64,000 nucleotides of DNA from an uncultured virus (IMG/VR IMGVR_UViG_2061766007_000740) (Duplodnaviria > Heunggongvirae > Uroviricota > Caudoviricetes), in IMG/VR virus record IMGVR_UViG_2061766007_000740; one strand, 5' to 3'. This document shows, one piece after another, positions 2,706 through 35,994 of the stretch (position 1 is its first letter; every line of letters starts with the position of its first letter). A program made the position numbers and the translations under genes. The notes below the pieces were generated by a model. That model had not been told where the DNA came from and ran no database searches. It saw only the letters and a program-made list of their open reading frames with translations.

Positions 2706-2710
2706 TCATT

Positions 2711-8700: not shown

Positions 8701-10024
8701 AATATTATTCTGACGGCGTATAACAATGAANNNNNNNNNNNNNNNNNNNNNNNNNNNNNNNNNNNNNNNAATACGTCTTCTCAGCAAAGAATATTGTATG
8801 TAATAAACTAGATGAAGTTCATTGGGATAATTCCATACGATATGAAATTGATTTGGTAGCTGTAAATAATAGTGGTGTTGCGAAAAAGACTGTCAAACTC
8901 TATGATGAGACAAAAACGGGAAGTGGTGTCAGTTNNNNNNNNNNNNNNNNNNNNNNNNNNNNNNNNNNNNNNNNNNNNNNNNNNNNNNNNNNNNNNNNNN
9001 NNNNNNACATCATTTTACAGGCTACAGAACTGATGCTTCAAAAAGGGGATAAGTCAACAGCATATCAAGACTATGTGAAGCATATTACAGAAGCGTTACA
9101 TGGTACGACACAGATTGCCGGNNNNNNNNNNNNNNNNNNNNNNNNNNNNNNNNNNNNNNNNNNNNNNNNNNNNNNNNNNNNNNNNNNNNNNNNNNNNNNN
9201 NNNNNNNNNNNNNNNNNNNNNNNNNNNNNNNNNNNNNNNNNNNNNNNNNNNNNNNNNNNNNNNNNNNNNNNNNNNNNNNNNNNNNNNNNNNNNNNNNNNN
9301 NNNNNNNNNNNNNNNNNNNNNNNNNNNNNNNNNNNNNNNNNNNNNNNNNCTCACCTAATGCCATTCTTGAACCGAGTAACTATACAAGTGTATTAAGTAA
9401 AGATGCGAACACAAAGACTGTAAACAGCAGTGAGATTATGTTCTATAAGACTATCGGAACTCTTAGCGTGGATGTTCCTGCTAACAATGAATATGTAATT
9501 GGCACAGTAGAAGGAAATAACATGTTTAGCGCTCAGATATACTATTATAACAATAGTAGCCGATTGNNNNNNNNNNNNNNNNNNNNNNNNNNNATAACAC
9601 GACAACCGGAGATTACTTTGATGCTCCTGTGACATTCCAAGGACCAATGGTAGGACCATATATAGATGGTAGGACGGTATATCAAGTATCTGTAGATGCA
9701 GGCACTAGAATTAACTTGACGGCTGGGGCATATAGAGTTGATCTTGTCCTAAACTGCTCACTCACTGCTGATGTATTGATGTACTTTACATACACAAATA
9801 CACTCAATCTATATACGGATGCATCAAGTTATAGTAAGATAATCATCGGAAATAATGGTATATTATGCTCATCTACAACCGGACAATATATGTTAGTCAA
9901 CACAAAATCAAATAAGGGATTCCTCGATGTTAAGTTTGTTGGATTGACTAACAATGTTCAAACAGGATTAGGGCAATTATATATGTCGAGTGATGGAACA
10001 TTAAAGATCGGATTGGGTTCTTAG
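2711..10024 (+). CDS. Very large tail tip / host-specificity protein (~2400 aa), split into many ORF-track pieces by N gaps
   Basis: Open frames on both sides of the gaps inspected; TKLFAYGASRNL, EFEEIYPS, DIYMPDIYIRAAEQRL, SWFMEGVPTLDNLPASNW, AQDTADGKRRVF, PTPPYDPGDLW, IGGENLL motifs. Confidence 0.7.
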
Positions 10025-10026
10025 CC

Positions 10027-10365
10027 TTAATACTCCTTAGCGTAAGGTTTGTTATTCCAAAGAATGAAATCACCATAGGATATTATAACCTCCTTCCCAT
10101 TAACTTGATTAGGCGATGTACTGTACGGCCATAGTTTGACAACCTCATACTCTTGGACGTATGGTACATTCTCGTATATAGCAACTCCTGATTCGGGGGA
10201 AATAACGCTTCCGNNNNNNNNNNNNNNNNNNNNNNNNNNNNNNNNNNNNNNNNNNNNNNNNNNNNNNNNNNNNNNNNNNNNTCCTGTTGTATAGGTAGGA
10301 CTGTTCTGATTGCACCCAACGAGCAAGAGGCACAGCGTGCCCAAAAGGATAATTTGCGCCTTCAT
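10027..10365 (-). CDS. Lipoprotein moron, antisense within the tail operon
   Basis: Lipobox LLVGC; own TACCTTTG promoter upstream. Confidence 0.7.
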   Translation of the reverse strand: MKAQIILLGTLCLLLVGCNQNSPTYTTGXXXXXXXXXXXXXXXXXXXXXXXGSVISPESGVAIYENVPYVQEYEVVKLWPYSTSPNQVNGKEVIISYGDFILWNNKPYAKEY

Positions 10366-10390
10366 AAGAGATTGAATTTAAATGTCGCTG

Positions 10391-10421
10391 CAAAGGTACA
10401 AAAAATATTTCACATACGCAA
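10391..10421 (-). promoter_or_regulatory. Bacteroidota primary-sigma promoter for the 10365 lipoprotein
   Basis: Minus strand TTTG(CGTATG)...TACCTTTG(CAGC) = -33/-7 consensus. Confidence 0.7.
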
Positions 10422-10518
10422 ATTTTAAGCATAATAAATTTCGTTAATCATCACGAAATGGTATTTATAAGAGGTTATTGCNNNNNNNNNNCCTTTGTCG
10501 CAAATTTTAAAAACGACT

Positions 10519-10854
10519 ATGGATAACTTATACATTGGTGCTAAATACGATGCAGGTATCGTGCAGTACGAGGACGGAACGGCGATTGACTTCCCGGTGA
10601 CAGCCGTGCTCTATGACCGTCAGTCCAAACGTGCTTATGAGAAACTGAATGTAACGACTGTTTCTCCGGCATTGGGTCCGCATATCATATGGGACGCAAG
10701 TGAGACCAAAGACATGATCCCGGCTATGTATGATCTGGAGCTCTATAAGAATTACAATAGCGCTACGGAGCGTGAGATGATCGGTTATGAGCGTGACTAT
10801 GTGAAGGCGCAGACCGTATCGGCAACAGACCTCGAGGAATCTTCAAGTAACTAA
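10519..10854 (+). CDS. Hypothetical structural protein (BppU-like beta domain)
   Basis: IIWDASETKDMIPAMYDLELY pattern; tail region. Confidence 0.45.
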   Translation: MDNLYIGAKYDAGIVQYEDGTAIDFPVTAVLYDRQSKRAYEKLNVTTVSPALGPHIIWDASETKDMIPAMYDLELYKNYNSATEREMIGYERDYVKAQTVSATDLEESSSN

Positions 10855-10859
10855 GAACT

Positions 10860-11051
10860 ATGGCAGGAAAGATCATCATAAAGAAGACGACGGCGAAGAA
10901 TCTGGTTGTTACCAGTCAGAAGTCGAAGGTCATCAAGGCTACTGACGGTACGCTGTGGGGCAAGATCGTGGGCGATATCCATAATCAAGCAGACCTCATG
11001 GCTAAACTGAACAAGATTGAGAAACTCGCAAAGGCAGGAATAGTATTATGA
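10860..11051 (+). CDS. Small hypothetical protein
   Basis: WGKIVGDIHNQADL motif as in tail-fibre shafts; ATGA overlap with next gene. Confidence 0.55.
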   Translation: MAGKIIIKKTTAKNLVVTSQKSKVIKATDGTLWGKIVGDIHNQADLMAKLNKIEKLAKAGIVL

Positions 11052-11614
11052 AAGAGATTATCTACAATATCGACGGAGTGGCTGGCCGCGTGATCACGCT
11101 GACCGGCTTGACGGGTACGTTCACGAAGAATAACGTGCTCGGTATCATCAACAAATCCCAAGGCGATGTGCTATACACGCCGATGGACTGGAACCTGCTG
11201 ACCTTTGCGTACAGTAACGGCACGATGACGCTGACGCTCGCGGAGAGTGTGGCGGCTATCACGGCAGGCGACAAACTGTTCATCAAACTCTACACCGACG
11301 AGGAAGGCGGCGGTGACGCGGCGGAGCAGGTCAAGGACTTCTTCGGCATCGTCAAGGATGGCGACACGGTCAAGGTCGTGACGGAGGATGGCGGGGAAGA
11401 GGTGGTCGAACCCGTCGGGCTNNNNNNNNNNNNNNNNNNNNNNNNNNNNNNNNNNNNNNNNNNNNNNNNNNNNNNNNNNNNNNNNNNNNNNNNNNNAAGG
11501 TGCAAGCGACGTGGTTCGGCGTGTATATCAAAGACAAAATCCAAGAGCCGCTCGCNNNNNNNNNNGAGCGGTGAAGGCGGAGAAGGCGGTTCCGGGAGCG
11601 GCTCAGGTGAGTAA
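11048..11614 (+). CDS. Hypothetical virion protein with Gly/Ser/Glu tail, gapped
   Basis: ORF coupled to upstream gene; ends GEGGEGGSGSGSGE. Confidence 0.5.
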   Translation: MKEIIYNIDGVAGRVITLTGLTGTFTKNNVLGIINKSQGDVLYTPMDWNLLTFAYSNGTMTLTLAESVAAITAGDKLFIKLYTDEEGGGDAAEQVKDFFGIVKDGDTVKVVTEDGGEEVVEPVGXXXXXXXXXXXXXXXXXXXXXXXXXXRCKRRGSACISKTKSKSRSXXXXSGEGGEGGSGSGSGE

Positions 11615-11633
11615 CAATTAAAATCAAAGAGAT

Positions 11634-12456
11634 ATGACAGATTCAATGAGAAAACTATTTGACAACTTTTTGTTCAAGGTGCAAGCGGCGTGGTTCGGCG
11701 TGTATATCAAAGACAAAATCCAAGAGCCGCTCGCNNNNNNNNNNGGGATTACAGCCGCAAGGAGTTACGATGCCGATAAGGTGGCTCGTGGGGGATACAA
11801 ACGGAGCGGCTTATATTGACACGGACTTTATACCGGGTAATCTTACGACTATCGAAATGTCGTTCAAGATAAACGAGATACATTCCAGTTCGCAGCACTC
11901 ATGTCTCTTCGGTTCTCGTGCAACTTATTCGTCACGGACAATATCGTGGGGATGGGGTAACAGCGGATGGCAGATGACGGGAAGCCAATGTTTCACATCG
12001 TGGGGATTATCGGCAAACTATCAGATGCTAACGAGACCACTCGACACGCAGCAACACACGGTCAAGTTGGATAAAGGAAACTATATCATCGACGGAACTT
12101 CTGTATATCAATATCCGCAATCGACATTTACTTGTCCGTACAACCTGTACGTATTCAACCTACGGCAAGACAGCGGTCTGCTGCCGAACGGATTGGATAG
12201 CGATGGATATGTGGCGTACTTCAAAGTATGGGAAGATGGCGAGCCTATTGCTCACATGATTCCTTGCAAGCACAATGGGCAGAACGGAATGTATGACATA
12301 GAGCGGATGCGGTGGTTTGGGAATGCAAACAGTAGCGGCTCATTCACCATCCCCGACATTTCCTACAACCCCCTCCACCCCATAACCCGACCAACGGAAG
12401 CGCATCAATTAACGCATCGAAGCGCATCAACCGACAAACGGAAGCGCATCGACTAA
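11634..12456 (+). CDS. Receptor-binding-like protein, allele 1 (LamG/ConA-like beta-sandwich C-terminus), gapped
   Basis: N-terminus MTDSMRKLF..., then GLQP..MPIR..GD..AYIDT...MIPC...GMYD...NANSSGSFT. Confidence 0.55.
12397..12450 (+). repeat. 3 x GAAGCGCATC, 22-bp period
   Basis: Copies start at 12397, 12419, 12441. Confidence 0.9.
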
Positions 12457-12494
12457 AATTAACAATAAATATAAACATTATGGANNNNNNNNNN

Positions 12495-13314
12495 CAATTT
12501 GGTATGGACGTACTGGCTGAAGGCTCCGGCCATGACTGCCATCCTCGGGGCGTTTGGTCAGAGGGATGGCATGGAGGTGATCAATGCGACCAATGCCTAT
12601 CTGAACCAGTTGGCTGCGAGTGGTCAAGCAGGGAAGGACAAGGCTACCGCTCTGGCGGGGTTCATCAACGAAGACCCGATGATGGTCTGCTCGCTGGGAT
12701 TACAACCGGAATTGACGGTACTGCCGAGTATGCCGATAAGACTTGCTTGTGGCGATGGCTCGGCTTGGCTCGATAGCGGAAAGAAGACCACATCGACAAT
12801 GACCCTTGACGTAGAGGTTATGCCGAACGACAACGATATATCCACAAGCCGCTACATCCTTGGCGGTAACGTGGCATGGGGTTCGTTCCTGCTCCGATAC
12901 TATGTGCAGAAGTTCATGTGGCACTACGGAATCAACGGCGGAGACCACGGCGTAGGAAGTCCGGCAGTCGGCAATGTCTATCACATAACCGCAGGACCAT
13001 ATACGATTGCGGTAGATGGAGACTCTTGGACGGCATCGAACACCAAGGCATGTGCTGCAAATGAGAACCTACGATTCTACCGAAGCGGTAACATGACGGA
13101 CTTGTACGCAAAGAGCGGCATCGGTAAACTGATAATCGGAGATAACGGAACAAACGTATTGGAAACATATCCGTTTGTACGCAATAACGTAATAGGGCGA
13201 TTGGATGTCTTGAGCAATACGTTCTTGATAAACCAAGGCAGCGGAGCGTTCACGATTATCTATAAGTATAAGCAAAACGGCTCATGGGTAACTTGGACCC
13301 CATCCACCCCATAA
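12495..13314 (+). CDS. Receptor-binding-like protein, allele 2 (5' end in gap)
   Basis: Shares GLQP..MPIR..GD..AWLDSG...YPF...GRLD...NQGSGAFT framework with allele 1; ends TPSTP. Confidence 0.55.
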
Positions 13315-13324
13315 CCCGACCATC

Positions 13325-13352
13325 GAAGCGCATCAATAAACGCATCGAAGCG
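13325..13352 (+). repeat. GAAGCGCATC array, 22-bp period, truncated by gap
   Basis: Copies at 13325 and 13347. Confidence 0.85.
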
Positions 13353-13362
13353 NNNNNNNNNN

Positions 13363-13402
13363 AGGCGGCAACAACAACCCCGATGACGGGATGCTGGGAT
13401 AA
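13363..13402 (+). CDS. 3' end of a probable HU-like DNA-binding protein gene (partial)
   Basis: GGNNNPDDGMLG*; same end as 23278-23376. Confidence 0.4.
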
Positions 13403-13414
13403 GGAGGAATGGCT

Positions 13415-13573
13415 ATGACACAAGATTATATGACAAATCACTACAGTTTGCCGAATGGTCGGGTTTGGAAACCTATGGCTCACGATGCTAAGAAACAGGA
13501 CAAGAAGAATCGTATCTTTGTCTATGTTGTGGTTGGTATTGTTGCGGCAATGGTAGTATTGTGCCTCCTTTAA
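13415..13573 (+). CDS. 52-aa membrane peptide (not in ORF track)
   Basis: AGGAGG then ATG; MTQDYMTNHY...RIFVYVVVGIVAAMVVLCLL*. Confidence 0.6.
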   Translation: MTQDYMTNHYSLPNGRVWKPMAHDAKKQDKKNRIFVYVVVGIVAAMVVLCLL

Positions 13574-13674
13574 TCGGGTTACGGCTCTTGGCTGAGCCGT
13601 AGCTCCCAAAACTTGAAATGTCCAAAATTATGGCTGTTTTTTGGACAGATTTTGGACAATTAACTTGAAAGCAT

Positions 13675-14744
13675 ATGAATATAGAAAAAACAATAAGTGA
13701 GCAGGCAGTCTCTGACATACTGACCCCGATGCTTGAAAGCCAAGACCGCATTGTGACAGAGGACGTTGCGCCGTTGTTCGATCAGGCAACAGGTCTCGAT
13801 ACTCCGCCCGCCAGTGGTTCTGTCACTACGACCATCGAAGAAAGTCGCAGCGTGATTACTGCTATCATCCGCAAGGCTTGGACGGCTACACTGACCATGC
13901 TTTGTGGAGCGTCTGTCATCAGTTATATTACAGCAGCCTATACCTACCTGCGGAATCGCTTGCAAGGCAATGAGACATACGGCATTCCAGACCGCCGCTC
14001 GGAGATTTCCGCATCGTCGTCTCTCGCCGCTAATCTCGCGCTGCTGAACGATAGGAAGATAAGCGGAGTACCAGAGGCCGTGGATGGGATGAGTCTCGTG
14101 CATCTACTTGTGGACAATAGCAGCATCACAGAACTGACTGACGATAACAAGTACCGCTTGACGAAACAACTGACCATCAAGACGCATCTGCCTAACTGCT
14201 CAAAGGTCACGATGGGTTGCACGGAGATGCAAGTGCCTTTCGAGTATGCCGGTGGTGTCGTATTTGGTAGCGACTGCGAGTACTATCTGCCGAACCTCAA
14301 GAAGATTATTCCTTCGACCGCAGGCGGCTTTGGTCACGGCATCTTCAACGGCAGTGTGCAGACCCATGACATCAACTGCCCTGAGTTGGAAGAGATAACA
14401 CCGACGGGCGGATTCTTCGGGTTCTTGCGTGGGAGTGGTTCGACAACGACCGAGCCGTTTGAGATATTGCTGCCGAAATTACGCATCAGTCCTGCGATAT
14501 TCTCGCACTATAACGCATCGTCCTATGGCGTTACAAAGTTGGTAGTCGGAAAGATCGAGACGAACAACTGGAATCCTTATTATAATTATGGATCAATGCC
14601 GACTACTCCGTACTTGCAACATTTCGAGATAGGAGAAGGAACGGCTGTTAGTTTGAACCTAAGCGGTTGGAATCCAACGGACAAAGGTGCGACCTTCCTC
14701 TCGAACTTCCGCGACTACATCGCCAACCGCCTCACCGACAACGG
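13675..14744 (+). CDS. 'MNIEKT' variable protein, allele A (LRR/BspA-like middle; probable receptor-binding protein), ends in gap
   Basis: Constant ~130-aa N-terminus, LPNLKKI/CPELEEI/LPKLRI repeats, NFRDYIANRLTDN motif. Confidence 0.65.
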
Positions 14745-14753
14745 NNNNNNNNN

Positions 14754-15369
14754 NGGATGGCAAGCAGAGGGTACGGCTCTATATTGCTACATCGCTGCAA
14801 ACTGCGCAAACATTGAGGAGATACATGCTCCGGCTATGTGGCGGTTCAATGGTGAGAACTCGGCAACGAATACGAACAATATATCGCAGAACCCGAAACT
14901 ATGGTGTGTCGAGATGGGAGACATGAAAGACCACCTCGGATGGTCGGTCTATTATTTCTACCAATGCCCGAAACTGATACGTTTGGAGTTCAAGGGAGTG
15001 CAAGGAAGTATAAATTTGTCAAATTGGAACCCGTCGTATGTCCTATCCGACAACCCGACCGGCACGGACTTGATTGAGGAAGGCTCAACGGCTCAGAACA
15101 ACCTCCAGCAGTTCCTGCAAAACTTCCGCGACTACATCGCCTTACGCCTCACCGACAACGGCAGTGGCAAGACCCTCACCCTTTCCCAAGCCGTCTATGA
15201 TGCAATAAAAGGTACTAATGGAGGATATGCAAGTACACATACTCTTGGAGAGATATACAGAGAAAGCCTGGTATTAACGCCTTTAGAGATTGAGTTGGGA
15301 ATAACCGAGAATACACTATACTCCACATGGCTTACAACCTATTTTGGAGAGAATGGAATAAACTGGAAN
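14754..15369 (+). CDS. 'MNIEKT' family, C-terminal fragment of another allele (D)
   Basis: CANIEEI/CPKLIRL repeats then NFRDYIALRLTDNGSGKTLTLSQAV; bounded by 10-N gaps. Confidence 0.6.
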
Positions 15370-15379
15370 NNNNNNNNNG

Positions 15380-15486
15380 ATTTGGTCCGGCGTATAGTGT
15401 CCGGACGAAAGCAGGAAGCAAGCGTAGTGCAGTTGCTTCTGATCCAGCTCGCGCCAGTCGGTAGGGACGGTGATGTCTATTCTCAT
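15380..15486 (-). CDS. Phage B hypothetical protein, N-terminus only
   Basis: MRIDITVPTDWRELDQKQL; ATGA-coupled to upstream gene; runs into gap. Confidence 0.55.
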
Positions 15487-16277
15487 AACCAAAAGCCTCC
15501 TGAATTCTTATCGTTTTTGTAGGAATAGTCTGCCCAGTACTTGGCAGCCTCGGAATTCTCCCAGTTGGGGAAGGTGTCCGGATGCTTGCGGATCCAGTCC
15601 ACCATCTGACGTGCCACACGCTTGCCCTCTTCCGGTGTCATCTTATCGGTGAGCTTCCGGACGATGTACTGCTTGACCATGAAAGCGAGCGTCGAGAGCG
15701 GTTCGTTGACGGTGGTGTCATAGGCGTAGTTCCGGAGTGCGGAGAGTACCTCGGACGAGAGGACACGGCGCGCCAGCATCTCTTCCATTGCGATGATTCT
15801 TATTTTGTCGGCCAGGTAGCGGGCAAAGAAATCCGCCGTCACCTCCTGCATCCGTTGCGCCTCGTAGCCCTTAAAGACGGTACCACCAAGGACAGCGCCG
15901 TTGAGAATCGCATCCAGTGCCTCGATAGCTTCGTCCACTTGTGCCCGCAGTCCGTCGAGCAAGGCATTGACACGGTCACGGGATGCCGGAGCGACATTGT
16001 TGTCGGACACGATACCGAAACCGTTTTCCGTCAGGATGAGGTCGAGCGACGGTATAGCACGCCGGAAGCCTTCGTTGGCGACGATGATCTTGGCGTAGGT
16101 CAGGGCGTTTTCGTTCCCGGCGATATCGGCATACTTGACTACTCTCGACTCCAGCCATGCCTCTGCTATCGTCAGATGCGGCGTAATCTTCGTGAACAGG
16201 TCTTTCTCTCCTTCGACGGCGGTCACCACATTCGGGATGTACGCCGTCAGGAGATTGTTGTTGGTGATGTATTTCAT
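15483..16277 (-). CDS. Phage B conserved protein downstream of portal (DUF6712-like)
   Basis: AIPSLDLILTENGFGIVSDNNVAPASRDRV and C-terminal YKNDKNSGGFWL. Confidence 0.7.
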   Translation of the reverse strand: MKYITNNNLLTAYIPNVVTAVEGEKDLFTKITPHLTIAEAWLESRVVKYADIAGNENALTYAKIIVANEGFRRAIPSLDLILTENGFGIVSDNNVAPASRDRVNALLDGLRAQVDEAIEALDAILNGAVLGGTVFKGYEAQRMQEVTADFFARYLADKIRIIAMEEMLARRVLSSEVLSALRNYAYDTTVNEPLSTLAFMVKQYIVRKLTDKMTPEEGKRVARQMVDWIRKHPDTFPNWENSEAAKYWADYSYKNDKNSGGFWL

Positions 16278-17618
16278 TGGTTATCCTCCTTTCCTTGGTC
16301 CTTGGTCTGTTTGATATCCTTGTGCTCGTCGAGGGTGGTGAGCTGCATGATTTTGCACTCCGGCTTCACGCCTTCCCATTTATTGATGTAGCAAACCATC
16401 TGGTGCACACGCATCATCAGGTCGTGGGTGGGTTTGTTCAGCAGCTGGGCAATCATGTACAGTTCGCGTTTGTCGGAGCCGGAGTTATTGGACTGCGACT
16501 TGCCCGGTACCGAGCCGACGAGGTTCGAATGAACGCCCATCACGAAGCACACCATGTTAATCGCTTCCTGGATATCGGTCTCCCAGTCGCCGCCTTCCTT
16601 ACCCTGTTCGAGGTTGGTGATGGTGATGTAGGGATTGGGTTTGCCGGTACCCGGGTCGAGGTACGCACCGGTGAAGATAGCTCTTCCGGAGTTCTCTGCG
16701 CCGGTGAGGAAATTGATTATCTCCGTCTTCTTGGCGTTGACAGCCTCCTGTTGGGCCTTCTCATCGGTGACGCCGGAANNNNNNNNNNNNNNNNNNNNNN
16801 NNNNNNNNNNNNNNNNNNNTGGTGATGATGTACTTGAGCGGGGCGGCATTCTTGAGCTTGGAGTACTTACCGATGGCGATGAGCTGCTTGATGTCGTACC
16901 ACTTGCCCTTGAACAGGGAAGCGTAGTACGGAATCGGGTAATAGGTGCTGTCCGGAGTCGGGAAGCGCGTCACCATGGCGAACTGCACTTCGCCTTCCTT
17001 CTTGCCCTTGGCTTTCTGCATATACTGCTCCAAGTCATACAATGGGTCATCCGGATCCAGCAACACAAAGCGCTGCACCTTCTCCGGCGTATCCGTGTCC
17101 CGCCACTGACCATAGAACACATACTGCCGTGCGGCGTCCTTGGGACTGAACCGACAGTACATCGACTCCAGGCGATGGATAGAAGCGATGGCGTCGCGTT
17201 TCTGGTTGAGGGTGAAGAGGGTGACGGCGAAGTCCCAGTACTTCATGTCGGTGCCCATACCGAGGTTGAACGAGGTGAGGTCGTTATGCAGCATGAAGCG
17301 CTGCACACCGTTTCGTGTCTCTTCGGTGGCATTCTCCGGCAGGGTGTACTCCAGACCGGCGGCATAGCAGTTCTTGATGTTATGCTGCATACAGGTATTG
17401 ATGGTCTCGTCCTGCTCTATCTGGTCGAGGATCTTGAAGGGGATATCGTTCTTGATACCCCACGGCATATATTCCAGACCGTTTTTGAGCTTGGTCGGTT
17501 TGATGCCTTCAGTAGCCGAGTCCTCCTTGAACACTTTCTGAGCGGACGCAGTAAACGCGGCAGCCAAAGCGCTCTTGTTGACGGTGAACTCGTAAAATTC
17601 GATAGGTAATGTCTTCAT
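16274..17618 (-). CDS. Phage B portal protein (Bacteroides prophage type), split by gap
   Basis: YMPWGIKNDIP, YYPIPYYAS, MGVHSNLVGSVPGKSQSNNSGSDKREL, QLTTLDEH motifs. Confidence 0.75.
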
Positions 17619-17691
17619 AGTCGTGCATTAAATTCGGGTGCAAAGATAATACATCGCACACGGGTGCAAAAACCACAGCGTTTTAGGGCAC

Positions 17692-17723
17692 AAAAAAAGC
17701 AGGGCGCTAACCCTGCTTTTTTT
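17692..17723. terminator. Bidirectional intrinsic terminator
   Basis: A7-GCAGGG-cgctaa-CCCTGC-T7. Confidence 0.8.
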
Positions 17724-17919
17724 CTCGTGCAACAATCTGCATGAAGACGAGGTGATTGAACCGCCATACCTGCCAGTACTCCTCGCAATCCTTTGCCAAC
17801 TCGACACCGCTGGAGCCGCTTATGAACTCCAAATGTGCCATAATTCTGCCGCTGTGCTCCAGCAGCTCCTCCAGCTGCTCCACCCGGCATGCTTCCAATA
17901 ATTCTTGAATGGTAACCAT
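17707..17919 (-). CDS. Hypothetical protein
   Basis: 70-aa ORF in tight operon. Confidence 0.5.
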   Translation of the reverse strand: MVTIQELLEACRVEQLEELLEHSGRIMAHLEFISGSSGVELAKDCEEYWQVWRFNHLVFMQIVAREKKQG

Positions 17920-17922
17920 AAC

Positions 17923-18189
17923 TCAATAACTTTTTAACATTTTTTTATATCGCGGCGAGGCGAACGCCTTACCCGCTTCTATGTCCTTCAACTCCTGCTT
18001 GGCTTGCTCGCGGCATATCTGATAGATACGACCACCCCAACCGAACTCGCTGACCTCTTGCCGGAACGCCTCACGCATTGCGGCGCTTATCTTTGCCGGA
18101 GCTTTGACCGGCTTAGAGGCTGCCGGCATGGGAACCGGCTGAACCTCTGCGGCTGCGAAAGCGGCAAACAAATCTAACTGCTGTATCAT
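17923..18189 (-). CDS. Hypothetical protein
   Basis: MIQQLDLF start overlaps upstream stop (ATGA). Confidence 0.55.
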   Translation of the reverse strand: MIQQLDLFAAFAAAEVQPVPMPAASKPVKAPAKISAAMREAFRQEVSEFGWGGRIYQICREQAKQELKDIEAGKAFASPRYKKMLKSY

Positions 18190-18518
18190 TGTGCGCCTCC
18201 TTTCTTGGCAAAAGCGACCTGCGACGCTGCAAACAGGAACACCACCGGGCACCAGCTCTGACCCTCGCGCGGCTTGCCCCAAAATGGGAGAGCCTTCTGA
18301 CCCTTGCGAACCTGACCACCGCGGCGCTTCCAGCCCTCGAATGTATGCAACTTTGCACCCTCTTTCACTCCATACGCCTCACGGAGCAATTCATTTGCCT
18401 TAACTCCCGGACGACCTGCAATTTCGGCTTGCACATCCAACCCTGCGCAAAACTCTTTCAATGCTTTTCTAACTTCTACCATCTTCGTAGCTGACTTCAT
18501 TTCTAATTGCTCTTTCAT
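18186..18518 (-). CDS. ArdC-like N-terminal ssDNA-binding domain protein
   Basis: TFEGWKRRGGQVRKGQKA...VFLFAASQV resembles the ArdC N-terminal motif. Confidence 0.7.
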   Translation of the reverse strand: MKEQLEMKSATKMVEVRKALKEFCAGLDVQAEIAGRPGVKANELLREAYGVKEGAKLHTFEGWKRRGGQVRKGQKALPFWGKPREGQSWCPVVFLFAASQVAFAKKGGAQ

Positions 18519-18877
18519 AATTGTACTGAATTTGATTGTTAATAACTTGTTGATAACCTAAATTTTTGATGATTTACGCTGCTTTATCAAGGTAGCCGGA
18601 TATAGCCCTGCAAGATTTTACGCGACAAAATACGAGCCAAGGGTCTGGAGATTTTTCGATAAACGAAGCCTGACCTTGCTGCGCTCAATAGACGCGACTT
18701 AGTTTTGCGGCGGAAATCGGAGAAAATAGGATCAACAAGAACAATCTCAGCACAAGAAGAGCAAAGGAATGAAGCCGAACGAAGAGAAGGAAGCTACACC
18801 CCACGTGCCGGGTTCCGGCATGTATCGAGCAGCCGGATGGGGCTACCACCGGACAGCAGACACCTGCCTGCGAGACG

Positions 18878-18902
18878 AAAAAAGCAGCCGGTTAAGGCTG
18901 CT
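18878..18902 (-). terminator. Intrinsic terminator of the pilin-like operon
   Basis: AGCAGCC-ttaacc-GGCTGC-T6 on minus strand. Confidence 0.75.
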
Positions 18903-18945
18903 CCTTCATTGCGTGGGTATCATCTTGCTGACGCCAGCAAAATGT

Positions 18946-19380
18946 TCAGAACGTGACCACAATGGTCGTCGCGCGGATGTATAGACCGAGGACAGCGTAC
19001 TTGGTCTTCTGCCCGGCCTTCGACACGCTGGCTGATGGCATTCCAAAGGTATAGCCGTCATCGGTGAGATACCGAATCCCGGCATCTCCATACTCGATGT
19101 GCCGCAGTACCGACGCTTCCTCGTGCGTCGGGATGTGGTAAGGCTCCGGAACGGAATAGCTATCGGACGCAAGAACGCCGGTCCGGAAGACGGACACTAT
19201 CCATTCGGTCGAGTCGGTCTGATAGACCACTGTAGCCACATTCGAACCGCCGGGGCCAGCAGGATTAGAAGGGTTGAGTTCCTCCTCCGTCCTCCCACGA
19301 CACGCCGACATGCACAGTGAAAGTGACAGCAGTAGTACCACTGGAGCATAATATGTGAGCCGTCTGCACATCCTGTACAT
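18946..19380 (-). CDS. Lipoprotein partner of fimbrillin-like protein (copy 1)
   Basis: Lipobox MSAC; DGYTFGMPSASVSKAG shared with 36951-37409. Confidence 0.7.
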   Translation of the reverse strand: MYRMCRRLTYYAPVVLLLSLSLCMSACRGRTEEELNPSNPAGPGGSNVATVVYQTDSTEWIVSVFRTGVLASDSYSVPEPYHIPTHEEASVLRHIEYGDAGIRYLTDDGYTFGMPSASVSKAGQKTKYAVLGLYIRATTIVVTF

Positions 19381-19389
19381 GTGTTTCGG

Positions 19390-20235
19390 CTACCACGTAC
19401 CGACGATGTTGCTGTTCCATGTCGTGTTAACCGTTACGCTGGCCGACGGAGAGGTGAACAGATTGCCGGAGATCAATGTCTTGGTGTTAGCCGCCATCCG
19501 GACATCATCCACCGTTACGGAATAGATGACCTCGTTCGACGAGTTGTAGATGTTAATAGTGACATCGGCGGTAAACTCATCCGTCCGGCTGGGTGCCAGG
19601 ATATTGAAGCTGTACTGTACGCCGGACTGTCCGACCTTGGCGGTACACGACACCTTCTGACTCCACGACGCACCATCGACACCACATAGCGTGGCGATAT
19701 CCAACGAGGTGTAACGCGGATTCATGATGAACTCAATCTGATTAGCCGCTGCCGGGAACTCGTCATTGATGGTAACAAACACCATACCGGTCAGCCGGTC
19801 CAACTGCAATTCCTGGGCCGGTGTCGATGCCGACACATTGAGCGCCAGCGACTTGCCGAAGGTCGAACGGAGCGATGTAGCGGAGAGCACACCTTCACTG
19901 TAGCTCAGACCGGCAGAACGGGTACAGATGAAAGACAGCGAGTGATTACCATGAGACAGGTTGAGAGTCACAGTACCGAACGACGGATCATCGTTGGTCT
20001 GGTGAGCGAGCTGGGTCGAACCGTCAAACACATACAGGTCGGTCAGAGCAACACCACCTTCATCATCGAGGATAGTCGCCTGCGGAGCTTTACGCGGGCT
20101 GTTCATCGGTTCGGTAGATTGTTCGAAGGCGGACACCTTGAACGTGACTTGCTGCTTGGCTTCCGGGTCGTTGCCGGACTTGCAGCTAATGAGCAATAGC
20201 GCACAGATGGCGCTGAAGAAAAGATATTTTTTCAT
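19390..20235 (-). CDS. Fimbrillin/Mfa-like Type V pilin lipoprotein (copy 1)
   Basis: Lipobox LISC, QVTFKVS, LSHGNHSLSF, C-terminal ANTKTLISGNLF...TW; paralog of 36096-36938; own promoter near 20257-20264. Confidence 0.7.
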   Translation of the reverse strand: MKKYLFFSAICALLLISCKSGNDPEAKQQVTFKVSAFEQSTEPMNSPRKAPQATILDDEGGVALTDLYVFDGSTQLAHQTNDDPSFGTVTLNLSHGNHSLSFICTRSAGLSYSEGVLSATSLRSTFGKSLALNVSASTPAQELQLDRLTGMVFVTINDEFPAAANQIEFIMNPRYTSLDIATLCGVDGASWSQKVSCTAKVGQSGVQYSFNILAPSRTDEFTADVTINIYNSSNEVIYSVTVDDVRMAANTKTLISGNLFTSPSASVTVNTTWNSNIVGTW

Positions 20236-20344
20236 ACAATGGTTAATTAGACGCTGCAAAGGTACAAAAATCTTCGGATATACGCAAGAAAAATGGCACT
20301 AAATCTTTAAATTTGTGCCATTTTGTCGGGGAATTGCCCCTTTT

Positions 20345-20830
20345 CTACTGTTTCTTGGTCCACCTTGGTAGCAATCGATAGTTGACACCGTCGGTGGTGA
20401 TCAGGTCCTGACGGCGCTGCTTGCCGGACACCGTGAAATGACCCAGATGAACCCACTCGGAACCGTTGCGCGTCTCGTCGATATACTGGTCATACTCCTT
20501 TCGCTCCTCGTGCAGCCAGTCACGGAAACGCTGCTTGAACTCCTTGATGCGGCTCATGTTCTTCGGACGGATATCCACCGCCAAGCCTTCCGGATGGACC
20601 GACGTGGCGGATGAGTGCTCCAGCTTCTGGATCTTCTCGAAGCCCCGGAAGCCCGAAGTGACCTCGATAGCATCGCCCCAGACGAGACGGAAAGGTTCGA
20701 GGATGTCATACACCAACCGGCAGAGGTGCACCGTCTGCACGGCGTTCGGCTCGTTGGGCAGACCTTTGGCACTCGCTGTCTTCGAGTAGGTCAACTCCTC
20801 CAGCGTAAAATGTTCACTGATTTTAGTCAT
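20345..20830 (-). CDS. Phage B endolysin, peptidase M15 family
   Basis: SEHFTLEEL, TSGFR, SVHPEGLAVD, WVHL motifs. Confidence 0.85.
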   Translation of the reverse strand: MTKISEHFTLEELTYSKTASAKGLPNEPNAVQTVHLCRLVYDILEPFRLVWGDAIEVTSGFRGFEKIQKLEHSSATSVHPEGLAVDIRPKNMSRIKEFKQRFRDWLHEERKEYDQYIDETRNGSEWVHLGHFTVSGKQRRQDLITTDGVNYRLLPRWTKKQ

Positions 20831-20916
20831 AAATATATACGATTATTAAGATTTTTTTGCGTCCGGCAAGACAAACCTCGAGATATCGTCTGCCTAAAGT
20901 TTACGATTATTAAGAT

Positions 20917-21191
20917 TTACAGGAACGGAACGAACTTCCGTGCTATCAGGATATACGGTGCGGTGGTGGGGATCTTCTCCATCACCCAGCACGCTACCTT
21001 GGCCAGCAGCAGTATCGCCGTGATCCAGAACCACCACGAGCAGAACCGGTCATAGCCGGTGCGTTTGGGCATTGTCCGTTCCGTCTCCAGCTGAGACGAA
21101 AAGGTTTTATAGACCTCGCTCAGGCTGTCGTTTCGGGCACGTTCGGCAGCCAAATCGGCCCGTATATTCACCAACGAATCATTCACGGCGG
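20917..21191 (-). CDS. C-terminus of a membrane-anchored coiled-coil protein (probable spanin)
   Basis: Coiled coil then TM FCSWWFWITAILLLAKVACWV; directly upstream of endolysin. Confidence 0.5.
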
Positions 21192-21951
21192 NNNNNNNNN
21201 NAAACTCCTTGATGCGGCTCATGTTCTTCGGACGGATATCCACCGCCAAGCCNNNNNNNNNNNNNNNNNNNNNNNNNNNNNNNNNNNNNNNNNNNNNNNN
21301 NNNNNNNNNNNNNNNNNNNNNNNNNNNNNNNNNNNNNNNNNNNNNNNNNNNNNNNNNNNNNNNNNNNNNNNNNNNNNNNNNNNNNNNNNNNNNNNNNNNN
21401 NNNNNNNNNNNNNNNNNNNNNNNNNNNNNNNNNNNNNNNNNNNNNNNNNNNNNNNNNNNNNNNNNNNNNNNNNNNNNNNNNNNNNNNNNNNNNNNNNNNN
21501 NNNNNNNNNNNNNNNNNNNNNNNNNNNNNNNNNNNNNNNNNNNNNNNNNNNNNNNNNNNNNNNNNNNNNNNNNNNNNNNNNNNNNNNNNNNNNNNNNNNN
21601 NNNNNNNNNNNNNNNNNNNNNNNNNNNNNNNNNNNNNNNNNNNNNNNNNNNNNNNNNNNNNNNNNNNNNNNNNNNNNNNNNNNNNNNNNNNNNNNNNNNN
21701 NNNNNNNNNNNNNNNNNNNNNNNNNNNNNNNNNNNNNNNNNNNNNNNNNNNNNNNNNNNNNNNNNNNNNNNNNNNNNNNNNNNNNNNNNNNNNNNNNNNN
21801 NNNNNNNNNNNNNNNNNNNNNNNNNNNNNNNNNNNNNNNNNNNNNNNNNNNNNNNNNNNNNNNNNNNNNNNNNNNNNNNNNNNNNNNNNNNNNNNNNNNN
21901 NNNNNNNNNNNNNNNNNNNNNNNNNNNNNNNNNNNNNNNNNNNNNNNNNNN

Positions 21952-23058
21952 TGCGATGTAGTCGCGGAAGTTTTGCAGGAACAAAGCCTTGTTATCATCC
22001 GTAATAGTCGGAGACCAAGTAGAGCAATCCAAACTAATACCTTGCTCCTCGCCAAGCCTTAGTTCCAAGAAGTCAGGATGGTCGCCCGATACCACGAAAG
22101 CCGAACTTTGCCCGATAGTTACGCGCTGAATCTTTGGGCAAGAATTGATGGTCGAATAGCTCCATTGCGTTGCTCCATGATAGTGCGGAGCATAGACCTC
22201 AAGCAGTTCGCTACAATCGTAAGCAATAGAGCAACCATAGACCACATTCAGCCGTTGGAACTTTGGCAGGTACAATCTCTTCAAGTGAGTATCTACGGCA
22301 TACAATCGACCATAGCCATCGGACTTGAACTCTTCCAACTCCGGGATGTTCATCTCCTCAACCTTTAGATTCGTAAAGCCGTACTGATTATAGCCGACCC
22401 AAGTCTTCTGATAGATGAGTTTGACTTTCGGCATATCCAACTGCTCCAAGTTTGCGCAGTTGTCAGTCCATCCCGATAGCGAGCACTCAACCGTCTCGCA
22501 GTTCAGCGTGAGTTTCTTCAAGCCGGAGAACAAAGACACCAAGCGGCTCAATGCTCCGTTATAAGTCCAACCTACATTGTCATCCGTCAGTTCCTCAATC
22601 TCTGAGGCTGTGCTCGTCTCACCAATAAGATGAGCAACCGACATCCCATCCGCTGCTTCGGGGACACCGCCAATCTTCCTATCGTTCAGCAGCGCGAGAT
22701 TAGCGGCGAGCGGAGACGATGCGGAAATCTCCGAGCGGCGGTCTGGAATGCCGTATGTTTCATTGCCTACCAAACGATTCCGCAGATAGGTATAGGCTGC
22801 TGTAATATAACCGATGACAGACGCTCCACCAAGCATGGTCAGTGTAGCCGTCCAAGCCTTGCGGATGATAGCAGTAATCAGGTTGCGACTTTCTTCGATG
22901 GTCGTTGTTACCGTACCACTCGCGGGCGGAGTATCGAGACCTGTCGCATCATTAAACAACGGCGCAACGTCCTCGGTGACAATGCGGTCTTGGCTTTCAA
23001 GCATCGGGGTCAGTATGTCTGATACGGCATGCTCGCTTATTGTTTTTTCTATATTCAT
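21952..23058 (-). CDS. 'MNIEKT' variable protein, allele B, ends in gap
   Basis: N-terminus nearly identical to allele A; different LRR-like middle; NFRDYIA motif. Confidence 0.65.
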
Positions 23059-23112
23059 ATGCTTTCAAGTTTTGAGAATTAGGGCGCAACCAAGCACCCT
23101 AATCCGGGTTAG

Positions 23113-23265
23113 TTAGTCCCTCGGCGCAAATTGCCCGTTGGAACAATGGAAGTGCGGTTGCACTTGGTGGTAGGTCTTCGACTCAATACAATGGAGAGAG
23201 TCGGTCTTCGGGTTACGGCGACAATTCTTACATTGTCCGCAGACTGAATCTTGGAAAGTTCCCAT
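23113..23265 (-). CDS. 50-aa Cys/His-rich peptide (not in ORF track)
   Basis: AGGAGG then ATG; MGTFQDSVCGQCKNCRR...HC...HFHC...RD*. Confidence 0.6.
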   Translation of the reverse strand: MGTFQDSVCGQCKNCRRNPKTDSLHCIESKTYHQVQPHFHCSNGQFAPRD

Positions 23266-23277
23266 AGCCGTTCCTCC

Positions 23278-23376
23278 TTATCCCAGCATCCCGTCGTCGG
23301 GGTTGTTACCGCCACCGTTGCCGCCACCTTCGCCTTGGTCGTCATCCTCCTCGTCAGTCTCACCCACGAAACGCAG
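23278..23376 (-). CDS. 3' end of a probable HU-like DNA-binding protein gene (partial)
   Basis: LRFVGETDEEDDDQGEGGGNGGGNNPDDGMLG*; acidic Gly-rich tail typical of Bacteroidota HU-related proteins. Confidence 0.45.
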   Translation of the reverse strand: MRFVGETDEEDDDQGEGGGNGGGNNPDDGMLG

Positions 23377-23386
23377 NNNNNNNNNN

Positions 23387-24287
23387 CGGAGGTGCATCTG
23401 TCCTCAGTTCTATTGCAGCAGCCTATACCTATCTGCGGACCCGTTTGCAAGGCAATGAGACATACGGCATTCCAGACCGCCGCTCGGAGATTTCCGCATC
23501 GTCTCCGCTCGCCGCTAATCTCGCACTGCTGAACGATAGGAAGATTTCTGAGCCGAACGCAATAGATGGCATCAGTCTTGTGCGATTGCTTTGTGATAGT
23601 ACGGCAGCAATGACCGAGTTTGAGGATACGAACTACGGATGGACGTTCAACAAGACCTTGCCCGCNNNNNNNNNNNNNNNNNNNNNNNNNNNNNNNNNNN
23701 NNNNNNNNNNNNNNNNNNNNNNNNNNNNNNNNNNNNNNNNNNNNNNNNNNNNNNNNNNNNNNNNNNNNNNNNNNNNNNNNNNNNNNNNNNNNAATTTCCC
23801 AGAGTTGGTAAACGTATCGACATGCAATAATCCTCCGCTCAATTCGACAACGATTGAGGAGATAGATATGCCGAAATTGGACTACATTAAACGGTATAAT
23901 ATCGGTTGCATAACAGGATGGTCGGCAATTAAGAAGTTGCGTGTTCATCATCCAAACTTTGACAGAGTTTATCCGAATGTAGGCGANNNNNNNNNNNNNN
24001 NNNNNNNNNNNNNNNNNNNNNNNNNNNNNNNNNNNNNNNNNNNNNNNNNNNNNNNNNNNNNNNNNNNNNNNNNNNNNNNNNNNNNNNNNNNNNNNNNNNN
24101 NNNNNNNNNNNNNNNNNNNNNGAAAACTTCCGCGACTACATCGCCAACCGCCTCACCGACAACGGCAGTGGCAANNNNNNNNNNTTCCCAAGCCGTTCAC
24201 AATGCCATCAACGCCGCCGAAGACGACTATCACATAAGAGAAATAATAACCCAAAAAGGCTGGACGATTTCGCCAGCACCGAATTGA
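23387..24287 (+). CDS. 'MNIEKT' variable protein, allele C, gapped
   Basis: GNETYGIPDRRSEISASSPLAANLALLNDRKI; NFRDYIANRLTDNGSG; ends QKGWTISPAPN. Confidence 0.6.
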
Positions 24288-24288
24288 T

Positions 24289-24528
24289 ATGAAGAAGATT
24301 ATTGACCTTTACCCCGAAGCCCCCAATGAGTGGCTTTGGCGCGACCACGCAGAAGACGTCAAGCGTGAGTTCTATCCGTCCGTTTCTATCCCTGCACAAG
24401 ACGAACCGCTCTGGCACGAGTGTACCGACATGGCTCGCATTGACTACGAAGCATGGTGGGAACGTGAGCATCCCCAACCCGAACCGGAACCATCGCCCGA
24501 ACCCGAACAGAAAGGAGGTGAGGTATGA
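24289..24528 (+). CDS. Small protein following fibre gene (tail-fibre chaperone-like)
   Basis: WHECTD..R..YEAWW pattern, PEPEP tail; tail repeated at 25322-25384. Confidence 0.5.
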   Translation: MKKIIDLYPEAPNEWLWRDHAEDVKREFYPSVSIPAQDEPLWHECTDMARIDYEAWWEREHPQPEPEPSPEPEQKGGEV

Positions 24529-25307: not shown

Positions 25308-25380
25308 NNNNNNNNNNGCGGCAGCATCCCCAACCCGAACCGGAACCCGAGCAGGAACCGGAGCAGAAAGGAGGTGAGGT

Positions 25381-25875
25381 ATGACGTTATTATTTATCCC
25401 CTCGCTGATGGAAGGCAACATAGATGCTTTCCTGACAAAGGTGGCAGTAGTGGTGTTGCTATGGCTCATCGTTATTGCCGCGAGTATGATTGACCTTATC
25501 ACCGGCATTGCTGCGAGCAAGCGAACCGGCATTCAGCACACGACCTCATGGGGACTGCGCCGAACCGTCAGCAAGGACTTGCAATACCTTGCGCTGCTGG
25601 CTATGCTGCTGATTATCGACATCGGACTGAGTGCTCTTTCGCAGCAACTGCCGTTGTTCGCGATGCCGTTACTCTCGACGCTGGGAGTGATTACAATCTC
25701 AACCGTAGAGGCTATCAGCGTAGCCGAGAACACACGCAAAGGCAAAGCGCCGGAGGACGACAAGATGGACGATATTCAGCAACTGGTAATGGCGGTCGCT
25801 GATAAGTTGGGCAAGGACAAAACCAAAGCCTTTTTGCAGGCCTTGGAGGAATACGAGAAAGGGAAGAAAGCATGA
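25381..25875 (+). CDS. Phage holin (Bacteroides type)
   Basis: Three TM segments, IDLITGI, SWGLRRTVSK, EAISVAEN. Confidence 0.8.
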   Translation: MTLLFIPSLMEGNIDAFLTKVAVVVLLWLIVIAASMIDLITGIAASKRTGIQHTTSWGLRRTVSKDLQYLALLAMLLIIDIGLSALSQQLPLFAMPLLSTLGVITISTVEAISVAENTRKGKAPEDDKMDDIQQLVMAVADKLGKDKTKAFLQALEEYEKGKKA

Positions 25876-35200: not shown

Positions 35201-35994
35201 TTGTCATTTGCCGAATTGAACTTCTGCAATAACTCCTCTTGTTTTGTAGCCAACGATATCAGACGCTCATCTTCCTTCTCCGCTTTCTTCTTTTGCTCTA
35301 CTTGACGTTGGAGATCGCGTACCAACTCATCATTCTTGGCAGCACGCATATTGCCGGAGTTAGTACCCCATTTGCGCATCTCATCGGAGATACGTTGAGC
35401 GAGTTGCAAGCGCTTCTGCAGATCGCCAGACTTGTCACCTTGGATAGCCTTCATCTGCTCACGGAGAACGGCAATACGCTTCTCCTGCTCTGCTCTCAAC
35501 TTCTGCTCATTAGCAATAGCAGTCTTGACGGCAGCGTCTTGCTTGTGAATCTCTCCAGTAGCAGTCTTCCAGTTCGCTATGTACAGTTCCTGGAGTTGGA
35601 TGATGGTTTGCAACTCGTTCACATTCCCAATGTTGAATGTATCGGGAGTACGAAGCATCGCTTTGAGACGCTTCATCGAGTTCTCCATCTTGTCAATACT
35701 GCCGAACAAGTCGTCGAACTTCAACGACTCCTTCTGCATAATGCCTTGTGCATCTGCTCGACTGAATGAAAACTCGAAATTCCTCTTGAACTTACTTGTG
35801 ATCTGGTCCCATGTCTTCGTCATCTTCTGCAATGACGCCTCGAACGCCTTCGTATTCAAGTGAGGCGCAATGTCAAGATGCTTCATCAATTGAGATTCGG
35901 TGCTCTCAACCTTCGAAGTAAGTCTGGCCAAATCTTTTTCTACTTGGCTTAATTCAATACCAACAGGTAAATTTAATCCACCAGAAGCTGCCAT
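29297..35994 (-). CDS. Tail tape measure protein (~2230 aa)
   Basis: KQLAAY, DMQRLILAYGQV, LRGQELRQFTEAGIP, MTKEGGKFY; C-terminal LSGGIESVTEDTA; after the last gap the frame continues to ...PLHVTMA* at 29297. Confidence 0.9.

Follow-up and report, generated by a model that had tools for sequence, protein, structure and literature searches.

Alternative versions of a phage leucine-rich repeat gene strung together in a gut metagenome scaffold, with a middle domain that is probably exchanged as a cassette

Hypervariable host-recognition genes are an arena of the arms races between phages and bacteria, and the modular exchange of phage specificity domains is well known. To our knowledge, very little has been described on such genes in the phages of the rumen and in other phages of the Bacteroidales type. 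In the gp38 adhesins of T-even phages, as set out in the part of the description drawn on here, a conserved attachment domain is combined with interchangeable hypervariable segments that lie between conserved motifs (PMC3157838). For the mosaics of temperate phages, the corresponding part of a second report describes homology-driven exchange that tolerates divergence and leaves traces of high identity at the borders (PMC3945230). Here, a gene is described that can be set beside these systems. It is found in an uncultured virus of the Caudoviricetes (IMG/VR record IMGVR_UViG_2061766007_000740); the window, meaning the whole stretch of DNA that was analysed, is 64,000 nucleotides (nt) long, and between positions 13,675 and 24,287 it contains four versions (alleles A, B and C, and fragment D) of a gene for a protein with leucine-rich repeats (LRRs). 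In this region, versions of a single-copy gene from co-occurring related phages were joined in series in a bovine-gut metagenome scaffold; it is not a multi-allele locus of one genome. The explanation that we consider probable for the observations as a whole is a chimeric scaffold together with a single-copy gene whose LRR cassette is exchanged as a block.

The protein has a length of ~390-450 amino acids (aa) and consists of a conserved N-terminal domain of 129 aa, an LRR solenoid of ~210-260 aa (called the middle below), an anchor of 25 codons, and one of at least seven tails. In the window, A and B have 461 nt in common at 89% identity (13662-14122 vs 22611-23071), C has 155-159 nt in common with A and with B at 92%, and exact runs in this N-terminal block reach 50 nt between A and B and 44 nt among all three. 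The three alleles then part abruptly after codon 129, the I of LLNDRKI, which is where a first-pass annotation of this DNA had seen a common N-terminal region give way to divergence. At the other end of the middle, the 20-mer AACTTCCGCGACTACATCGC is found at exactly four sites, 14704-14723(+), 15121-15140(+), 24125-24144(+) and 21953-21972(-), and not once in 100 shuffles. All four copies had been recognised in that annotation, with coordinates off by one at two of the sites, and so had the extension CGCCTCACCGACAACGG, which follows the 20-mer in A, D and C; in B, a run of N interrupts the sequence right after the 20-mer. The parts of the four versions are the following.

13675-14061, plus strand: constant N-terminal block of allele A, codons 1-129, 89% identical to B over 461 nt
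14062-14703, plus strand: variable LRR middle of allele A, in which identity to B drops to 0.24-0.62 per 45-nt bin
14704-14744, plus strand: start of the anchor of allele A; the 25-codon anchor is broken by the N run 14745-14754
14755-15120, plus strand: 3' part of another allele's LRR middle in fragment D, containing the optional sub-block DLIEEGSTAQNNLQQFL
15121-15195, plus strand: complete anchor of fragment D, NFRDYIALRLTDNGSGKTLTLSQAV; contigs branch at both of its ends (15121 and 15195/15196)
15196-15368, plus strand: tail of fragment D, of the class YDAIKGTNGG... (tail class 5 of 7, also found in homologue P0038), ending at the N run 15369-15378
21952-23058, minus strand: allele B, with constant block 22672-23058, middle 21973-22671 and 20-mer 21953-21972, then a run of 699 N
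23388-24287, plus strand: allele C in four pieces, 23388-23665, 23793-23986, 24122-24174 and 24185-24287

The first piece of allele C is constant up to 23546 and then belongs to the middle, as does all of the second piece (23793-23986); the third (24122-24174, 53 nt) holds only the anchor, and the tail piece (24185-24287) ends in ...TQKGWTISPAPN plus a stop codon. An open reading frame (ORF) of 615 aa at 13675-15522 is not genuine, the frame being kept by chance across a 10-N gap: A attains the anchor already at 14704, and D comes from the 3' half of another allele, whose anchor and tail it carries. Over the constant N-terminal block, an antisense frame of 130-147 codons is open in all three copies examined (13660-14103(-) and 22630-23022(+) in the window, and 1163-1555(-) in the metagenome locus L002); this very probably reflects no more than the conservation of the sense strand. 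The DNA structure at the junctions showed nothing notable (z-scores -2.4, +0.4 and -1.65).

Every junction between the alleles is an N gap, as the first-pass annotation had stated. There are 41 N runs in the window, many of them exactly 10 long; the region 1983-29474 is made up of 38 pieces split by such runs, and pieces as short as 51 to 59 nt stand between gaps. There are also exact 50-nt duplicates (928-977/1994-2043, 2218-2267/2400-2449 and 20538-20587/21203-21252), of which one member per pair is isolated between N runs; in the last pair, 21203-21252 copies exactly the sequence 665 nt away. These duplicates resemble read-length gap-filling artefacts of the assembler. Whole modules are present in duplicate in the scaffold as well, namely the M15 endolysin, the lipoprotein pair and the portal-like gene. 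Allele B is part of one large block.

15379-23376, minus strand: inverted block of a second phage resembling the viral contig G001, with allele B, a spanin-like ORF, an M15 endolysin, two lipoproteins, a portal-like gene and a DUF6712 gene

The 2.3 kb at 15379-17677 have 95.6% identity to G001, and the minus-strand gene order of the whole block equals that of locus L001, which is on the G001 contig. Going by sequence, the block is a second phage inserted backwards in the scaffold. The strand of a very long tape-measure gene of more than 2170 codons (29476-35994(-)) is not that of the portal and tail genes in 1-15368, which also speaks for a window that combines at least two phages.

Outside the window, the gene is found as a single copy in both near-complete viral contigs. 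In G001 (40.4 kb, estimated completeness 95%) it encodes 436 aa, and in G002 (42.8 kb, 100%) 435 aa. A tblastn search with 64 different middles identified one LRR region each in G001 and G002, and in the window only A, D, B and C. Likewise, all nine distinct loci that bear an anchor have one anchor per locus.

Contigs from public metagenome runs were compared with positions 13363-21191, which comprise A, D and backbone, B and C lying outside. An independent assembly of the same run contains allele A only as a 685-nt contig (14040-14724). In X1 and X2, the two best runs, which come from one sample, contigs branch at 14060, 15121 and 15195/15196, and two other tails (RNAIHAA... and FSEIWDSQGQ...) run on from the anchor in independent contigs. 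The summed contig depth, which is one figure per contig added up over everything aligned and neither a read count nor a copy number, is 112-167 (X1) and 107-125 (X2) for the constant block, 10.7 and 9.4 for A's middle, 6.0 and 7.6 for D's own contigs, and 7.8-20 (X1/X2) for the backbone 15451-21191. In the runs that contain allele A, the summed contig depth of the constant part thus exceeds that of A's middle by a factor of 10-16, and the depths of A and D are unequal. In run X8, the constant block has a depth of 835-1051 with no contig for A's middle, and X3 covers parts only, gaps in the cover of a contig set being no evidence of absence. Three joints in X1 (14060 to 14755, 14060 to 15066 and 14069 to 14695) were not used, having sides of only 21-27 nt. 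The ends of the pieces in the window (A's in the anchor, B's right after the 20-mer, and C's anchor as a 53-nt island) are as expected when variants share a node in a de Bruijn graph. The first-pass annotation had added the caveat that the copies might be co-assembled variants, and this is what the single copy per relative, the pieces ending at the flanks and the differences in depth bear out; four alleles in one molecule found no support. Many short metagenome contigs begin or stop inside the LRR gene, and microdiversity there fragments assemblies generally.

The borders of the middle are sharp at the DNA level. In a set of 16 DNA sequences (A, B and 14 metagenome loci), nucleotide diversity (pi) at third codon positions rises from 0.087 in the 70 codons that precede the left boundary to 0.651 from two codons past it. 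For the anchor (consensus NFRDYIAxRLTDNGSGKTLTLSQAV, 25 codons), third-position pi is 0.078 in nine sequences, or 0.143 in ten when the indel variant L014 is included, with 0.59 upstream and 0.53 downstream. Divergence is block-wise and sets in within one to two codons. Ordinary synonymous variation at the anchor and a gradual rather than block-wise divergence had been named beforehand as observations that would speak against a cassette, and neither was seen. The 20-mer is exact in seven of nine distinct loci. The anchor is nucleotide-invariant, but no more so than the entire N block: the silent sites of the anchor are nearly invariant, as the early description of invariant anchors implied, but the 20-mer is not exceptional, since the entire constant part is equally invariant. 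Nor are the blocks of homology short, as they had been called, with ~390 nt on the left and 75 nt on the right, or, with the commonest tail, ~380 nt that extend into the following gene.

The same design is seen in a comparison of 64 proteins that have both landmarks, namely 62 of the 120 listed homologues plus A and B. Among the 2016 protein pairs, the N-domains are at least 90% identical in 773, and the middles have a median identity of 29%, with only 16 pairs reaching 60%. Single-linkage clustering gives 54 clusters of middles, seven N classes and seven tail classes. For the 44 proteins of the main N class, the sharing of 7-mers is 0.47-0.86 in the N-domain and ~0.00 over most of the middle. 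The middles do retain common landmarks (FPN..K..LGC, P.L repeats and WNPT) and similar lengths, which makes them diverged homologues and not unrelated inserts; the 'unrelated middles' of the first reading are thus homologous LRR solenoids.

Middles and tails are found in combination with different flanks. As an example, the homologues P0001 and P0081 are 92% identical in the middle and only 23% and 20% identical in their N- and C-terminal parts, the common block extending from DRKIGG to NFRD. The nearest middle to that of allele A, in P0063 (57%), stands behind an unrelated N-domain. Within the main N class, each of the two commonest tails is found both with and without the sub-block DLIEEGSTAxNNLQQFL (counts of the four combinations 16, 6, 13 and 3). 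Judged from these comparisons, inheritance of the middle and the tail is block-wise and not tied to the flanks. Phylogenetic congruence across the anchors, which had also been named as speaking against a cassette, is not what clustering and pair examples display, since the blocks are reassorted.

Whole genomes can be compared in the same way. The backbones of G001 and G002 are 64-75% identical where they can be aligned. The exceptions are the N block (95.3%), the anchor with tail and next gene (93.7%), the end of the upstream gene Y (98.8%), and 557 nt with which the G001 contig begins (91.2%). A separate stretch of 122 nt with 92.6% identity (G001 15359-15480 vs G002 11919-12039) lies outside the putative host-recognition region. 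Between the window and G002, the same blocks are 94% and 88% identical, and elsewhere identity is at most 70% or there is no alignment; window positions 24125-24500 are 88% identical to G002 and 90% to G001, with backbones at 70% or below. By these alignments, the flanks are nearly identical in DNA between phages that are otherwise only 64-75% identical, and borders of high identity flank a divergent exchanged fragment, as in mosaic phages. The identity of the flanks at silent sites and the reassorted blocks together argue for a cassette that is exchanged between phages at the population level. Of the receptor-binding domain swapped as a cassette that the first-pass annotation had proposed, the cassette part holds, in that the middle behaves as an exchangeable unit between conserved borders, and receptor binding itself is suggested.

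A mechanism can be proposed. Whole LRR cassettes would be transferred when co-infecting phages or prophages undergo homologous recombination within the conserved flanks; the middles may be too diverged to cross over, which would produce the knife-edge borders, and selection on binding specificity could retain many old cassettes in circulation. Recombination genes are present in the window.

50663-52276, minus strand: YqaJ exonuclease (50663-51400, Pfam 2.1e-19) and RecT (51407-52276, Pfam 6.1e-38)

A specific role of this pair, which had been thought plausible, is not supported: the genes are 26 kb away in a chimeric scaffold, which makes their linkage to the phage of the LRR gene uncertain, and RecT, the one recombinase family looked for there, was found in none of the three relatives searched (G001-G003).

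The gene belongs to a large family. A word-indexed search returned 258 homologues, all metagenomic, nearly all of them single-member 90% clusters of 390-450 aa, and the only label they carry at the source is 'hypothetical protein', with no functional names. An exhaustive search of 1.84 billion representatives returned 337 clusters (counted at 50% identity) at E<=1e-3, 202 at <=1e-10 and 84 at <=1e-30. Among 185,579 GTDB species genomes there were no relatives (29 pattern matches, none of them a relative), and tblastn against a phage record collection gave no match. In four of 103 family members, LRR_5 (PF13306) was matched, with a best E-value of 7.8e-07. A search for allele A's middle inside longer proteins gave none among 604 candidates, which is weak evidence.

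For structure prediction, the full-length homologue P0010 was used, the alleles in the window being truncated. The AlphaFold2 (AF2) model has a predicted local distance difference test (pLDDT) score of 79.8, with a low-confidence helical N-part and a regular beta-solenoid from about residue 130. The anchor is a helix (372-385) plus a strand, with pLDDT of at least 83, and a small helical cap is present. The top matches by VIA-align are 4h09 (Z 12.7, root-mean-square deviation (rmsd) 3.6, 184 residues aligned) and the TpLRR structure 6mlx (Z 12.6, rmsd 3.6, 188 aligned), followed by 4fs7 (Z 11.9, rmsd 5.4, 229 aligned) and 4cp6 (Z 11.7). In this model the solenoid is right-handed with repeats of ~20-25 residues, and the middle is accordingly predicted to be an LRR solenoid of the BspA/TpLRR type. 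Foldseek returned 'BspA family LRR' proteins of uncultured gut phages from a viral library (BFVD); with the whole model against the PDB there was no match at E<=0.001, and the rows listed were LRR proteins with low TM-scores, a less clear outcome than that of VIA-align. A candidate transmembrane anchor at residues 68-92 was rejected: hydropathy over 19 residues stays below the threshold, with maxima of 1.25-1.39 in the main class and 0.61 to 1.62 in the others, and several of the other N-domain classes have Arg-rich helices at this position.

The genes around the LRR gene are relevant to its function, and the following are found in the window.

11746-12453 and 12499-13314, plus strand: gene X in two stacked alleles, with a conserved N-terminal part of ~100 aa and a hypervariable LamG-type lectin domain
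13363-13573, plus strand: stretch upstream of the LRR gene, in which gene Y ends (...NNNPDDGMLG, to 13403) and a small ORF lies at 13409-13573; an inverted copy is at 23263-23316
24289-24528, plus strand: small downstream gene, part of the conserved right-hand block; the same gene follows the LRR gene in locus L002

The order X, Y, methyltransferase or small ORF, LRR gene, small gene, lipoprotein and lysis genes is conserved in the loci L018, L019 and L002 and in the window. Gene X has 285 homologues, mostly in single-member clusters, with a conserved helical N-part of ~100 aa and a hypervariable C-part of ~190 aa. For several of them, the longest contig is equal in size to that of an LRR homologue, which suggests that homologues of both genes are on the same contigs. 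For the variable part, AF2 predicts a lectin jelly roll of the LamG/concanavalin type (pLDDT 84.9) with structural matches at Z 15-17; the matches include a Bacteroides carbohydrate-binding protein (Z 15.4) and a phage tailspike domain (Z 11.6). The stacked gene X alleles (11497-13352) are the same kind of scaffold artefact as the LRR alleles and have the same constant-plus-hypervariable design. A 70-nt repeat (99%; 11497-11566 and 11676-11745) precedes N gaps near gene X. A unit of ~22 nt (CATAACCCGACCAACGGAAGCGCATC...) occurs three times in tandem after one gene X allele (12381-12456) and once after the other (13309-13340), and in L019, too, gene X is followed by a sequence like it; the unit may mark a conserved 3' boundary of a gene X cassette or be a regulatory element. 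The breaks of the contigs G001 and G002 (loci L001 and L002) fall in or near genes X and Y.

The constant-plus-variable design, together with the lectin domain in the neighbouring gene X, suggests that the LRR gene and gene X form a host-recognition module, in which the N-domain would dock on the virion and the LRR domain would bind a variable host structure. We give this assignment about an even chance, by analogy with known modules. With the same cassette genetics, the product may instead be an accessory (moron) protein acting on the lysogen side, e.g. a binder for superinfection exclusion or against host defence whose LRR domain would follow changing targets in rival phages or among host defence proteins, which is possible but on the doubtful side. 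In favour of an accessory role, the gene in G002 is separated from the head and tail operon and runs in the other direction, near a methyltransferase, oppositely oriented lipoprotein genes and lysis genes; there are no structural matches in PHROGs, and the N-terminus has no features resembling a signal peptide. BspA-type LRRs are usually monomeric binders. The other way points the lack of a conserved membrane anchor, the constant linkage to genes X and Y, X being lectin-type and of the same design, and the position of the gene in the window's left-hand phage, where it follows the tail genes on the same strand.

A further and rather unlikely idea is that the conserved flank DNA is itself selected as 'homology arms' for a community-wide exchange of cassettes, for the LRR gene and the adjacent LamG gene alike. 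If this were true, any co-infecting relative, even one that is ~70% identical elsewhere, could donate LRR and LamG cassettes; a rumen phage would re-arm its specificity by recombination and not by mutation, drawing on a library of binding domains that is distributed over the population, as a population-level counterpart of the cassette systems of variable lymphocyte receptors (VLRs) and pilins.

Other explanations have been weighed for the diversity itself. Taken as written, the scaffold invites the idea of cassettes within one genome, with an expressed copy and silent or partial copies that are switched by gene conversion or inversion at the anchors: four versions stand within 11 kb, two of them in inverted orientation with inverted arms of 461 nt, and a tyrosine integrase and RecT/YqaJ are encoded in the window. 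The copies are, however, all separated by N gaps, the near-complete relatives G001 and G002 have one copy each and no further LRR fragment, and several cassettes per genome, as in silent-cassette systems, are thus not found. The depth of constant and allele-specific parts is unequal, with A unlike D. The inverted copy comes with 8 kb of its own duplicated backbone, in which the inverted arms lie, and no resolvase or invertase family was matched among the 80 ORF pieces of the window scanned with Pfam, so that the features of an invertible segment (shufflon) are lacking too. We regard this explanation as very improbable. Even less credit is due to targeted hypermutation of the middle by a diversity-generating retroelement (DGR) or a similar system. 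In its favour, the diversity is extreme, local and in a binding domain, and DGRs are common in gut phages. No match to RVT_1 was found in the 80 ORF pieces or in the three relatives searched; as to these pieces, the first-pass annotation was right to see neither a reverse transcriptase nor an invertase. A repeat search of 1-30000 found only constant blocks and anchors, and neither this search nor tblastn with the 64 middles revealed a template-like second copy of any middle. The middles also vary in length and cannot be aligned, rather than differing at scattered positions.

Divergence without any exchange, i.e. vertical descent in which the flanks are under strong purifying selection and the middle evolves under relaxed or diversifying selection, draws some strength from the fact that LRR solenoids tolerate fast change, and the common landmarks and lengths of the middles imply a common ancestor. 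Selection at the protein level gives no reason why silent sites are invariant in the flanks (0.08-0.09) and saturated next to them (0.65), or why flanks have 94-95% identity in genomes that are otherwise 64-75% identical, and it leaves the same middle in unrelated flanks and the presence of all four sub-block and tail combinations unaccounted for; we consider it improbable. Several points weigh against the scaffold chimera with a block-exchanged cassette and against the proposed function. The reassortment is based on module clustering and pair examples, and the DNA loci come from a few metagenome projects (Ga0326511-14 and Ga02333xx) and may be close relatives. The depth figures are of the contig kind described above, and the alleles that they took in are A and D. 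G001 and G002 are 'linear' and break at most ~1 kb upstream of the LRR gene, which makes a second copy beyond their ends formally possible. The anchor motif is absent from 31 of the 120 listed homologues and from three of 12 loci that reach the 3' end of the gene. With respect to function, alleles A, B, C and D of the window have no match in Pfam or PHROGs (LRR_5 gave 0 matches at E<=0.01), the N-domain has no recognisable relative (a search of the ESM Atlas with it gave no usable match), and the genetic context in G002, where the gene is beside methyltransferase and lysis genes and the terminase, protease and tape-measure genes are encoded on the other strand, would also fit an accessory gene.

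Some further features of the window concern its host and its lysis region. A family-2 glycosyltransferase (28103-28591(+)) and a UDP-glucose/GDP-mannose dehydrogenase-like gene (37409-38161(-)) are accessory genes typical of lysogenic conversion, as are those for two related lipoproteins with Bacteroidales-type lipoboxes (19393-20259(-) and 36096-36935(+)); on sequence grounds, these genes point to a Bacteroidales host. The stretch is present in 20 of 21 listed public bovine-gut metagenome runs from 14 studies. In the lysis region, a 62-nt repeat (89% identity; 24467-24528 and 25323-25384) closes two different small genes, encodes a Pro/Glu-rich C-terminus (PQPEPEP...EQKGGEV), and ends in GGAGGTGAGGTATGA, the start of the next gene.

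The LRR gene can be seen as a natural experiment, with dozens of mutually unalignable versions in the same animal between the same bracketing DNA. The conserved flanks would let a single primer pair amplify the whole allele pool of a sample, which would make cassette diversity, turnover and host linkage directly measurable. It is also a warning that scaffolds from short-read metagenomes can string population variants in series and in this way mimic multi-cassette loci.

In comparison with known systems, the likeness to the gp38 adhesins, going by the part of their description used here, is a conserved N-part with a variable specificity part bracketed by motifs, and a variable fibre-type neighbour gene. 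The LRR protein has no relation in sequence or fold to gp38 as described there, and its virion location and adhesin activity are putative; gp38 has four short segments between glycine-rich motifs, while the LRR protein has one solenoid of ~210-260 aa whose alleles are essentially without common 7-mers. With the relaxed-recombination mosaicism of temperate phages, in the aspects covered by the part of that report drawn on, the locus has in common that high-identity stretches border a divergent fragment and that RecT/YqaJ are present in the window (PMC3945230). Compared with the mosaics treated there, the LRR gene differs in having both borders within one ORF, the exchanged unit being a protein domain; the lack of RecT in all three relatives indicates that a Rad52-like recombinase is not a constant companion of the gene. 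The predicted fold of residues ~130-430 matches BspA/TpLRR surface proteins (Z 11.7-12.7), from which the family differs by its own N-domain, anchor and tails and by having no signal peptide or lipobox. A description of the family was not found in open-access searches, which does not prove its absence from print. What appears to be new is an undescribed family with a BspA-type LRR solenoid as an internal cassette, both borders being within one reading frame, and with alternative tails, an extreme number of alleles and a pairing with a lectin gene of the same design. As in gene conversion of pilins and VLRs, shufflons and DGRs, a binding domain is varied between invariant flanks, but here without silent cassettes, an invertase or a reverse transcriptase: each genome has one copy, and the 'library' of LRR cassettes is spread across the phage population.

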